This document shows, in pieces, positions 29,237-35,351 of a stretch of DNA of 64,000 bases. The first letter of the stretch is position 1. Every line of letters starts with the position of its first letter. The translations under genes were made by a program, and so were the position numbers. This stretch comes from Kofleriaceae bacterium (GTDB taxonomy: Bacteria; Myxococcota_A; Polyangia; Haliangiales; Haliangiaceae): the NCBI GenBank assembly GCA_036490935.1, contig DASXCY010000002.1, forward strand, positions 2,716 through 66,715. Reading direction: 5' to 3'. The notes under the pieces are model-generated. The model was not told the DNA's origin, did no database searches, and worked only from the letters and a program-made list of their open reading frames with translations.

Positions 29237-32200
29237 TCACTCGAGGCGGCCGTCGCCGAGCTGGCCCGAGCGCTGGTATTCGAGGGCGACGGCGCGGCGC
29301 AGGTGATCGTCGGAGAGCGAGCGTCCGTCGGCGGCGGCGAGGTAGGCGGCGCGCAGCGCGGCGTTGCGGATGTAGCCGCCCGAGAGCTGGAAGCGCTGCG
29401 CGAGCGACACGAGATCGAGCTCGCCCTCGATCGGCAGCGACGCCGGCAGGTGCGCGCGCCAGAGCCGCTCGCGATCCGAGGCGTCGGGGAACGGGAACTG
29501 GACCTGCACGCTCAGCCGGCGGCGGAACGCCGGATCGATCGCCGTGCCGAAGTTGGTCGTGAGGATCGCGATGCCGGTGAACGAATCGAGGCGCTGCAGC
29601 AAGTAGTTCGTCTCGAGGTTCGCGTTGCGATCGTTGCTCGACTTGACGTCGGTGCGACGGCCGAACAGCGAGTCGGCCTCGTCGAACAGCAGCACGAGCT
29701 CGCCGTCCTCGGCGGCGTCGAACACGGCGGCGAGGTTCTTCTCGGTCTCGCCGATCCACTTCGACACGACCTTCGACAGGTCGACGCGCCACAGCTCGTA
29801 GCCGAGCGCGCGGGCGATCGCGCCCGCCGACATCGTCTTGCCGGTGCCGGGTCCGCCCTGAAACAGCGCGGTCAGGCCGCGCGCGGACGACGCGACGCGG
29901 CTCATGCCCCACGTCTCGAGCACGGTGCGGCGATGCTTCGCGCGCGCGAGCAGCTCGCGCAACGCGTCGTCGATCTCCGGCGGCACGACGAGGTCGTCCC
30001 ACGCGGCGAGGTCGTCGACGCGCGTCGCGACCGACTCGATGCGCGCGGCGCGCTGCTGGCGCAGCACGGTCGCGAGCGCCTCGGCGACGTTCGCAGCGGC
30101 GGCGGGCATGGCCGCGCACGCGCGATGCATCGCGCCCGGGCCGACGGCGAACCGCGCGGCGAGCTCGTCGGCGATCGCGGGATCGTACGCGTGGCGCTGC
30201 AGCATCGCGCGCCACGTGTCGCGGCGCTCGGTCTCGGTGAGCGGCGGCAGCTCGAGGGCGAGATAGCCGGGCGACAGCGGCAGGTCGCCGCCGAACGGCG
30301 CGCGCACGAACAGCGGACCCGGGTGCGAGTCGAGGATCGCGCGCAGCCGCGCGTGCGCCGCCGGCTCGGCGACGAGCTCGATCGAAACGCACGGCACGTC
30401 GCCGCGCAACGCGACGTCGCGCAGCCGCGCGCGCAGCGAGTCGAGCGCGGCGAGGTCGACCGCGACCTGGCCGGTGTGGCGCTGCGCGCACGCCGCGAGC
30501 GACGCCGCGATCGTGCGCCGGCCCGAGCCAGTGCGGCCGCGCAGCACGACGCGCACCGGCGTGCGGGCGGGTGCCGTCAAGGCGCCGACCAGCGCGTCGA
30601 GCGCGCGGCGCGGCGCGACCAGCTCGGCCAGCGGCAGCGGCGCGACGGCTGCTTCGACATCGCCCGCCGGCGCGGCGCCGGCGAGGCGGCGCGCGATCGC
30701 CGGATGAGCGGTCAGCGCGGCGTACGGCCGGAGGCCTCGGCCGACCGCGATCGCGCCGCTGCGGACGAGCGGCGAGTCGTCGTCGAGCGCGCGGCCGATC
30801 GCGGCGCGGAGCTCGGCGTTGGCCTCGAGCAGGTGCGCGAGCAGGAGCTCGTCGACGAGCGGCCGCGCGGTGTCGGCGGTCGCGAGCGCGTAGGTGCGCG
30901 CGAGCTCGCCCCAGATCTGTGGCGCGGCGACGAGCAGCAGGACGGCGGTGGCGGTCGACGACAGGCCGAGCTCGTGCGCGAGCTCGACGTGCGGCGCACC
31001 ACGCCGCGCGAGCGCGGTGAAGGCGGCGATCGCGGCGGCCTCTTCGGCGCGCGCGGCGTCGAGGAATTCGGCGGCGGCGGCGGCGGCGGCGGTCGTGTCG
31101 GAGGCGGCGATGCCGGCGGAGGCCGCGACGGAGGGTGCGAGGGCGATCGCGGTGCGGGTGAGTGCGACGATCCAGCGGCGGGTAGCGTCGAGGTAAGGCG
31201 AGAGATCGGAGCCGGGGAGCGGGAGGCGAGGGGGCGCGCCGAGGGCGGGTAAGGGCAGCACGGGATCGGCAGCGGCAGCGGCAGCGGCAGCCGCTTCGGC
31301 AGCGGGATCGGCGGCGGCAGCGGGGGCGGCAACGGCAACGGGAACGGCAGCGGCAGCGGGGGCGGCAACGGCGGCGGCAGCGGCAGCGGGGGCGGCAGCG
31401 GCAACGGGAACGGGGGCGGCAACGGCAGCGGCGGCGGCAACGGCAGCAGCGGCGGCAGCGGCAGCGGCGGCGGCAACGGTAGCGGCAGCGGTAGCGGGGG
31501 CGGCAGCGGAAGCGGTAGCGGTAGCGGGGGCGGCAGCGGTAGCGGTAGCGGTAGCGGGGGCGGCAGCGGCAGCGGAAGCGGTAGCGGTAGCGGTAGCGGA
31601 GGAGGCGGCGGCGGGGGCGGAGTCGGAGTCGGAATCGGAGTCGGAGTCGGAGTCGGAATCGGAATCGGAATCGGAATCGGAGTCGGAGTCGGAATCGGTG
31701 AAGGCCGTGCCGCGGCCCATCTCGATGATCTCGCCAGCGGCGTCGCCGATGAGGATCCGCTCGCCGGCCGCGTCGATCGCGCCGGCGATCGCGGGCGCGC
31801 CAAGGATGCGCTCGCCCGCGCACTTGCCGGCACGGACGTCGAGCAGCGCGATGTGCGAGCTCGAGCCCAGCACCGCGATGCCAGCGCGCTCGGCGACCGC
31901 GAGCAGCCGCGCGGTGCCGAGCCGGATGCGCGTGCGCAGCGCACCGGTGCGCAGGTCGTAGACGAGCGCGGTCGCGGCGTCTCGCACGATCACCTCGATC
32001 AGGGCGGCCGCGCCGTCGAACACGATCCCACCGCCGCCGATCGTGCCGGCGACGAGATCCGCCGGCAGCGCGAGCGGCGTGCCGCCGGCGCGCGGCCACA
32101 CCAGCGCGCGGTTCTGGCGCTCGACCACGCCGCGCGCGCCGAGCAGCACGCGGCGATCGCGCCCGCGCTCGCCGAGCGCCTCGATCGCGAGCTCGCCGCG

Positions 32201-35351: not shown

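Follow-up and report, generated by a model that had tools for sequence, protein, structure and literature searches.

An eCIS-type AAA+ ATPase and a DUF4157-headed protein encoded as a divergent pair away from contractile-injection genes in Kofleriaceae

Does an ATPase of the type that loads cargo into extracellular contractile injection systems (eCIS) still serve such a system when it is encoded, together with a candidate cargo protein, away from any contractile-injection operon? The question is raised by two divergent genes of a Kofleriaceae bacterium, one for a AAA+ ATPase and one for a DUF4157-headed protein, to which we refer as the effector. The DNA analysed here (the window) is 64 kb of a 79-kb soil-metagenome contig of the Joint Genome Institute (JGI; Ga0376659_0000152) and has a GC content of about 70%. 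The same ATPase/effector pair was recovered from two further metagenome samples, and the close relatives of both proteins all come from metagenome-assembled genomes (MAGs) of Kofleriaceae/Haliangiales (Myxococcota). A sequence-only reading of the window had described proteins of 1110 and 897 aa encoded 88 bp apart and had suggested that they form an autonomous module; the coordinates of the open reading frames (ORFs) proved correct, and the motifs that it quoted, (DS)13, GRTGSGRRT, a DUF4157 segment and HExxH, were all located. We consider it probable that the pair is an eCIS-type loader/cargo module that has been systematically uncoupled from structural genes in this lineage.

Relationship of the ATPase to eCIS ATPases

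Judged by its motifs and domains, the C-terminal 640 aa of the ATPase clearly reads as a complete ATPase of the Afp15/Pvc15/Cis15 type. Pfam places a winged-helix domain (WHD, PF22977) at aa 490-610, with 28.6 bits against a gathering score of 27, and an AAA domain at aa 902-1026 (E 1e-24). The first ATPase module (D1) carries the motif GRTGSGRRT at aa 678-686, in which the Walker A lysine is replaced by arginine (GSGRRT), while the second (D2) has a Walker A of the GPGTGKT form (GGPGTGKTM, aa 905-913), a DEAD Walker B within aa 960-969, a KWIG pore loop and the arginine fingers RRR (AFRRR, aa 1014-1018). From these motifs D2 is predicted to be the catalytically active module and D1 a degenerate one. 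The eCIS ATPases Afp15, Pvc15, Alg15 and Cis15 share with the window ATPase the winged-helix N domain, the degenerate K-to-R D1 and the classic-clade D2, and the likeness extends within D2 to the DEAD Walker B, the aromatic pore loop and the double arginine finger. In Pvc15, both the Lys-to-Arg change in the Walker A of D1 and the DEAD Walker B have been described (PMC11495950).

D2 is 46-54% identical to plasmid-borne ‘ATP-binding proteins’ (196-239 bits for those listed), and its best relative of solved structure, Cdc48, reaches 116 bits only. In every neighbourhood examined, these plasmid relatives lie in or beside contractile-injection genes. The locus of the Streptomyces relative runs DUF4255-ATPase-sheath-tube-...-VgrG-PAAR-gp25-baseplate J, that of the Mycetohabitans relative is Afp-like with the order tape measure-ATPase-DUF4255, and the Brasilonema and Oscillatoria relatives likewise sit in or beside contractile-injection loci. 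The Pfam set of WHD PF22977 plus AAA is common to the window ATPase and the eCIS-embedded ATPases, including those of Streptomyces and Brasilonema, and when a WHD-D1 profile is compared by hhalign with the Streptomyces eCIS ATPase, the two match over 313 columns with a probability of 95.7%. A scan of IMG/VR with the same profile found no relatives, and there is therefore no sign of the clade on prophage- or tail-like viral contigs.

The window ATPase differs from the eCIS ATPases in three respects: its N-terminus is extended by a WD40-like propeller of 290 aa and a tether of about 180 aa, it is encoded away from any CIS operon, and it belongs to a multi-copy expansion in Kofleriaceae. The N-terminus, called ‘blade-like’ in the sequence-only reading, was modelled by AlphaFold2 (AF2) as a seven-bladed propeller (pLDDT 91.7, pTM 0.88) with WD40 propellers as its best Foldseek matches. 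This propeller is kept at 35-55% identity within the closest ATPase subfamily, and neither propeller nor low-complexity tether is present in the five eCIS-embedded ATPases examined, each of 659-704 aa. From this distribution, propeller and tether appear to be additions gained in a Kofleriaceae-specific clade. The tether consists of (DS)13 at aa 292-317 and an Ala/Pro/Thr/Val linker at aa 318-470, in which 84 of 152 residues are alanine; the linker had been anticipated correctly in composition, while its length is about 150 aa rather than about 120. When two metagenome samples are compared (L001 vs L002), (DS)13 stands against (DS)14 and a 2-aa indel falls in the Ala-rich tether, with only 8 substitutions in the ATPase outside the tether indels. 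Few substitutions elsewhere together with DS and Ala indels therefore mark the tether as a length-variable region.

A quite different assignment of the same protein would make the pair an anti-phage defence system of the IetAS type, that is, an AAA ATPase acting with an effector. PADLOC IetA models do match the ATPase (E 7e-29), and IteA_antiphage is its top NCBIfam match. These matches are nevertheless confined to the generic D2, the NCBIfam score of 88 bits compares with a cut-off of 510, an IetS-like protease is missing, and PADLOC gave no match for the effector. We rejected the defence assignment on these failed family thresholds and regard it as very improbable.

A 168-aa ORF elsewhere in the window (10637-11143, minus strand) is a stand-alone copy of the ATPase winged-helix module (hhalign 96.9% against the WHD-D1 profile; no Pfam match). 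It stands in a row with genes for an extracytoplasmic function (ECF) sigma factor (9903-10457, minus strand) and a Ser/Thr kinase-WD40 protein (6412-9954, minus strand). Pairs of ECF sigma and kinase-WD40 genes also flank ATPase paralogues in three other loci (L004, L005 and L022), which hints at a regulatory link.

The effector and its pairing with the ATPase

By its predicted domains, the effector looks like typical cargo, with a short leader, DUF4157 and a variable C-terminal enzyme. DUF4157, which now carries the Pfam name ‘eCIS core domain’, was matched with E 1.9e-15 (PF13699 eCIS_core/DUF4157; 57.2 bits against a gathering score of 22), and both domain assignments of the sequence-only reading, AAA and DUF4157, were thus recovered by profile hidden Markov model search. 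Its motifs are FGRHDISNIRAH at aa 43-54, AFALGDHVVFG at aa 70-80 and HEATHVVQQ at aa 90-98, the HExxH being HEATH at aa 90-94. The DUF4157-headed eCIS toxins AlgoCIS Cgo1/Cgo2 and EAT14 likewise have a short leader, a DUF4157 with HExxH and a variable C-terminal enzymatic domain, and the adjacency of effector and ATPase genes is also seen in the Brasilonema and Oscillatoria eCIS loci. The window effector differs from these toxins in having no nearby eCIS operon and in ending in a CYTH/triphosphate-tunnel fold. In AlgoCIS, the architecture of the cargo has been given as NTD-DUF4157-CTD (PROCIS preprint), an order of domains that the window effector follows.

For the middle region of the effector (aa 102-380), neither Pfam nor homology searches matched a family. 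The remainder, aa 381-897, was modelled with a pLDDT of 93 and a pTM of 0.90, and the Foldseek matches of the model in the PDB are YgiF (5a60, E 1.6e-7), ThTPase, Vtc4, PH1819 and RNA triphosphatases, with TM-scores, normalised to the targets, of 0.3-0.6. A sequence search of the PDB with the effector gave no matches. Pfam CYTH (PF01928) did not match the window effector either; it was reached by 7 of the 41 aligned family members (best E 2.4e-9). The domain is predicted to share the eight-stranded tunnel fold of the triphosphate tunnel metalloenzymes (YgiF, ThTPase, CyaB, Vtc4, Cet1/Pct1). The effector family has alternating acidic and basic residues on its predicted strands, and its invariant or near-invariant charged residues, which may face the tunnel, are those of ExExE (aa 591/593/595), R661, R663, K678, R692, R767, D785 and E811. 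The first-strand motif of the family is ExExE (LEAESEF), with Glu at the fifth position where the CYTH motif ExExK has Lys. Further differences from these enzymes are the larger module of 517 aa in which the domain lies, which also comprises C-terminal helices and an additional beta domain, and the fusion to a head of the delivery type.

Searched exhaustively, aa 120-897 of the effector yielded a rare family of 53 representative clusters that share the last ~460 aa. The heads of this family vary between DUF4157 (9 of the 41 aligned members), Sec-type signal peptides and others, and with such alternative heads the C-terminal family behaves like a toxin cassette. Conversely, few full-length relatives of the effector were found; most matches share the DUF4157 head only, and their C-termini are polymorphic (M23, CHAP, peptidoglycan-binding, OmpA, Macro and others). 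Based on the structural model, the C-terminus is most likely an enzyme acting on a triphosphate-bearing substrate, in the form of a cassette with alternative delivery heads.

A (W/V)PG(K/R) motif, as in WPGKRSLT, is common to the leaders that precede DUF4157 in proteins adjoining Kofleriaceae ATPases at loci L027, L052, L040, L023, L062, L004, L010 and L011. The window effector is without it; its orthologues in L010 and L011 retain PGR. The leader motif is a candidate recognition signal.

An intact HExxH and a predicted cytoplasmic type of enzyme raise the alternative of ATP-dependent processing inside the cell, where the AAA+ unfoldase would feed the HExxH head as a peptidase, much like a split FtsH, or would regulate a CYTH enzyme of cytoplasmic phosphate or nucleotide metabolism. 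Several points fit this alternative: D2 falls in the classic FtsH/Cdc48 clade, substrates are commonly recruited by propeller domains, most triphosphate-tunnel enzymes work in the cytoplasm, and PPDK_N and phosphoenolpyruvate (PEP)-utilizer genes adjoin two family members. We nevertheless hold it to be improbable: the closest relatives of the ATPase are eCIS loaders and not proteases, no peptidase activity has ever been demonstrated for DUF4157, a domain of about 70 aa, and the polymorphic partner C-termini (CYTH, Macro, M23, CHAP, OmpA and others) are a hallmark of delivered effectors and not of a fixed complex.

The pairing of ATPase and DUF4157 gene is conserved. All three effector orthologues (48-59% identity), which lie on unrelated contigs, have a propeller-ATPase gene divergently upstream, and these upstream genes open with the same propeller domain at 50-60% identity, while the downstream genes differ (GST, TOBE and PPDK_N). 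Another ATPase of the same subfamily (63% identity) is divergent from a gene for a 1938-aa DUF4157+Macro protein at a distance of 104 bp, and other members of the subfamily have a DUF4157 gene in tandem. More widely, scans with the WHD-D1 profile gave 108 related ATPase loci (42 from GTDB genomes and 66 from metagenomes), several MAGs having 2-3 paralogues each. Among the 27 paralogous loci with flanks of at least about 6 kb on both sides, a DUF4157 gene is the direct neighbour in 10 (~37%), lies within 10 kb in 7 more and is absent from that distance in 10. In a clustering of the genes around the first 42 loci, kinases, a HEAT protein, CpXC proteins and DUF4157 proteins came up repeatedly.

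The two genes could in principle be chance neighbours with unrelated functions, given that about a third of the well-flanked loci, such as those of P0132 and P0098, have no DUF4157 gene within 10 kb. This idea is effectively refuted, and is scarcely credible, because the two genes stay divergent at 3 of 3 orthologous loci while the other neighbours change and because 37% direct adjacency is far above chance for a rare gene family; the same pairing also occurs in cyanobacterial eCIS loci. The sequence-only reading had named conserved linkage of the two genes beforehand as a point on which it could fail, and on this point it held.

The 88-bp spacer has a GGAGG ribosome-binding site ahead of the effector ATG and a perfect 10-nt inverted repeat, AAACCCTGCA-N11-TGCAGGGTTT (32593-32602 / 32614-32623), which is a candidate operator co-regulating the pair. 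Half-sites of the form CCTGCA/TGCAGG are found again in the spacers of the orthologous loci L007 and L010. The JGI annotation starts the ATPase one codon later, giving 1109 aa, and this ATG at 32566 is the more likely start. Table 1 collects the coordinates.

Table 1. Features of the ATPase/effector locus, in window coordinates
Feature	Position	Strand	Basis
eCIS-type AAA+ ATPase with N-terminal propeller fusion, complete gene, 1110 aa	29237..32569	-	ORF list, Pfam, homology
ATPase aa 1-292, seven-bladed WD40-like beta-propeller (predicted)	31694..32569	-	AF2 and Foldseek
ATPase aa 292-470, (DS)13 then Ala/Pro/Thr/Val low-complexity tether	31160..31696	-	sequence inspection
ATPase aa 480-850, winged-helix domain (PF22977) and degenerate D1	30020..31132	-	Pfam, motif inspection
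ATPase aa 851-1110, classic-clade AAA D2 with active-type motifs	29240..30019	-	Pfam, motif inspection
Putative divergent promoter spacer, 88 bp	32570..32657	.	lies between ATPase and effector ORFs
Effector gene, 897 aa	32658..35351	+	ORF list
Effector aa 1-34, hydrophilic leader rich in Pro, Asp, Glu, Gln	32658..32759	+	inspection
Effector aa 35-101, DUF4157 / eCIS_core with HEATH (HExxH)	32760..32960	+	Pfam
Effector aa 102-380, middle region	32961..33797	+	Pfam and homology searches
Effector aa 381-897, beta-rich domain and triphosphate tunnel metalloenzyme (CYTH-like) fold (predicted)	33798..35351	+	AF2, Foldseek

Several related loci have further genes at the pair. A CpXC-domain protein (PF14353) is encoded between the ATPase and the DUF4157 gene in four loci (L032, 12956-13666; L041; L045; L050), and at L011 (3005-4978) the stop codon of effector orthologue P0006 lies within an overlapping PPDK_N (ATP-grasp) gene. 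At L060 (2502-5201 and 8574-9656), the DUF4157-CYTH protein P0220 has genes for a PEP-utilizer and a stand-alone WD40 propeller upstream, and no AAA gene was found near it at this locus. We considered the stand-alone WD40 gene as a counterpart of the ATPase propeller and dropped it, as the two have no sequence similarity and the parallel is anecdotal.

Missing contractile-injection genes and the fate of the cargo

Several observations weigh against reading the pair as an eCIS-type loader and its cargo, and most concern genes that are not there. Sheath, tube, spike, baseplate, tape-measure and DUF4255 genes are all absent from the ~73 kb of the 79-kb contig that was covered, using Pfam scans of most window ORFs and, for the other genes and 6 kb outside the window, precomputed Pfam annotation. 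A phmmer search of the six-frame window ORFs with the structural proteins of four CIS loci (Streptomyces, Brasilonema, Oscillatoria and Mycetohabitans) likewise found nothing, in agreement with what the sequence-only reading had said of the window. Around the related ATPases, a CIS structural gene within 10 kb was found at 0 of the 108 loci, no recurrent tail-like family appeared among the clustered neighbours of the first 42, and the structural-protein queries had no credible match in 1.57 Mb of DNA (the window and 125 loci). As positive controls, queries from one phylum recover their counterparts in others (sheath 1e-38 to 1e-45, tube 1e-10, VgrG 1e-11, gp25 1e-12 to 1e-24, baseplate J 1e-63 to 1e-127), and ATPase queries match about 101 ORFs in the same data. 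The gene context that defines an eCIS ATPase is thus lacking on the covered part of the contig and at the 108 related loci alike. Reported eCIS toxins lie within ten genes of the operon in 88% of cases (PMC11297309); the window effector has no eCIS operon within about ten genes, nor within at least 29 kb on either side.

The effector contributes further points on the same side. In AlgoCIS, DUF4157 is dispensable for loading (PROCIS preprint), and it may therefore not be the element that the ATPase recognizes. The effector has no conserved immunity gene beside it, enzymes of the triphosphate-tunnel type usually serve housekeeping functions in the cytoplasm, and the PPDK_N-type gene co-transcribed with one effector orthologue could point to a metabolic and not a toxic role.

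The missing genes bear most directly on the proposal with which the locus was first presented, namely that ATPase and effector work fully without a contractile particle. In such a scheme the ATPase might activate or unfold the effector for another export route or for release on lysis, and eCIS loci would merely incorporate the pair. CIS independence is favoured by the 0/108 count with its working cross-phylum controls, by the presence of 2-3 paralogues in several MAGs, by the clade-specific propeller that the five eCIS-embedded ATPases do not have, and by Haliangium, of the same order, being eCIS-negative in both genomes surveyed (0/2; Geller 2021). DUF4157 proteins also occur in lineages without eCIS, such as mycobacteria. 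On the other side, the analysis spans contigs and loci only, nothing points to an export route (signal peptides and transmembrane segments are lacking in both proteins, and the window contains no linked secretion gene), experimental knowledge of this ATPase type all concerns loading into a CIS tube, and dispersed ATPase/DUF4157 copies around eCIS have a precedent. Full autonomy thus seems to us rather doubtful. What has stood from the original proposal is the domain content, the absence of structural genes nearby and the conserved linkage; autonomy itself is still only a proposal, the window being part of a metagenome contig and a CIS possibly lying elsewhere in the genome. The CYTH-like C-terminus, the apparently complete eCIS ATPase in the last 640 aa and the large Kofleriaceae-specific expansion go beyond that proposal.

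The precedent is a 74-kb plasmid of Oscillatoria nigro-viridis PCC 7112, pOSC7112.04 (L059 / L129), which has three genes for eCIS-type ATPases and four or more DUF4157 genes, among them a divergent DUF4157/ATPase pair 85 bp apart beside baseplate genes. Its annotated structural parts are gp25, baseplate J and one tail protein only, and no sheath or tube is listed in its PLSDB gene table, which may be incomplete. These dispersed ATPase/DUF4157 copies thus give a satellite role a precedent. A parallel in concept only is offered by the orphan or auxiliary islands of type VI secretion systems, where VgrG-adaptor-effector modules with polymorphic C-terminal toxins lie away from the main cluster. 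There, too, the genes for cargo and for its own handling factor are remote from the structural locus, although the protein families are others and no VgrG, PAAR or adaptor genes are found here.

For the loader/cargo module that we favour, the recipient of the cargo is a separate matter. The Oscillatoria plasmid and the fact that the source is only a contig keep a satellite role alive, and we give a CIS encoded elsewhere in the genome about an even chance of receiving the cargo. A CIS-independent route is a minority possibility, if a substantial one, and something else as recipient takes up the small remainder.

The other genes of the window encode, by their Pfam content, sensor kinases, the ECF sigma/Ser-Thr-kinase-WD40 pair, lipoproteins, an EamA permease, and FG-GAP, major facilitator superfamily (MFS), RecQ and HflX proteins. 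The EamA-family permease, which has a long His-rich C-terminal tail (28190-29221, minus strand), begins 15 bp past the ATPase stop, and the gene of the related ATPase P0098 overlaps at its end with one for an MFS transporter. No transporter family recurs across the paralogous ATPase loci, and the proximity of permease and ATPase could reflect coincidence or co-transcription. On the far side of the effector, a lipoprotein (36042-37052, minus strand) has about seven SxDGxxWT (Asp-box-like) repeats and no Pfam match at E 1e-3; from these repeats it is probably a propeller.

Proposed mechanism and significance

The ATPase type to which the window protein appears to belong is needed to load leader-tagged cargo into the tube, with unfolding probable (PROCIS preprint; PMC11495950). 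By analogy, we propose that the two genes would be co-regulated from the spacer and that the ATPase would act as a hexameric unfoldase, its D2 binding the leader/DUF4157 end of the effector and threading the protein. Threading would keep the effector unfolded or inactive in the producer until the ATPase passes it to a delivery device, and the tethered propeller may be a docking or adaptor element. In the target cell, the CYTH-like enzyme would presumably hydrolyse, cyclise or polymerise a triphosphate-bearing substrate (inorganic triphosphate, a nucleoside triphosphate or similar) and might thereby be toxic. A bolder evolutionary version, which we think unlikely, is that eCIS operons recruited a pre-existing autonomous ATPase-DUF4157 unit that radiated in Kofleriaceae, where the propeller would replace docking onto the CIS baseplate or tube.

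Both protein families and their association are already known. In the literature searched we did not find described the detachment of a whole ATPase clade from CIS operons, the propeller fusion or a CYTH-type effector domain, and nothing relevant emerged when it was searched for CYTH domains among the effectors of contractile systems or for orphan genes of the Afp15/Pvc15 kind.

Both the recognition and loading of eCIS cargo and the contribution of DUF4157 matter to a field now engineering such systems for protein delivery. The lineage offers about 100 loader ATPases separate from particle genes, with a fused propeller and many of them adjoining polymorphic DUF4157 proteins, and thus a natural setting for studying how ATPase and cargo relate apart from particle assembly. 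A triphosphate-tunnel (CYTH-like) enzyme joins the repertoire of candidate delivered effectors. If a CIS is encoded elsewhere in these genomes, cargo can bring its own trans-acting loader, which would be useful for engineering cargo specificity; if there is none, the ATPase-DUF4157 unit would have a function outside current eCIS models.

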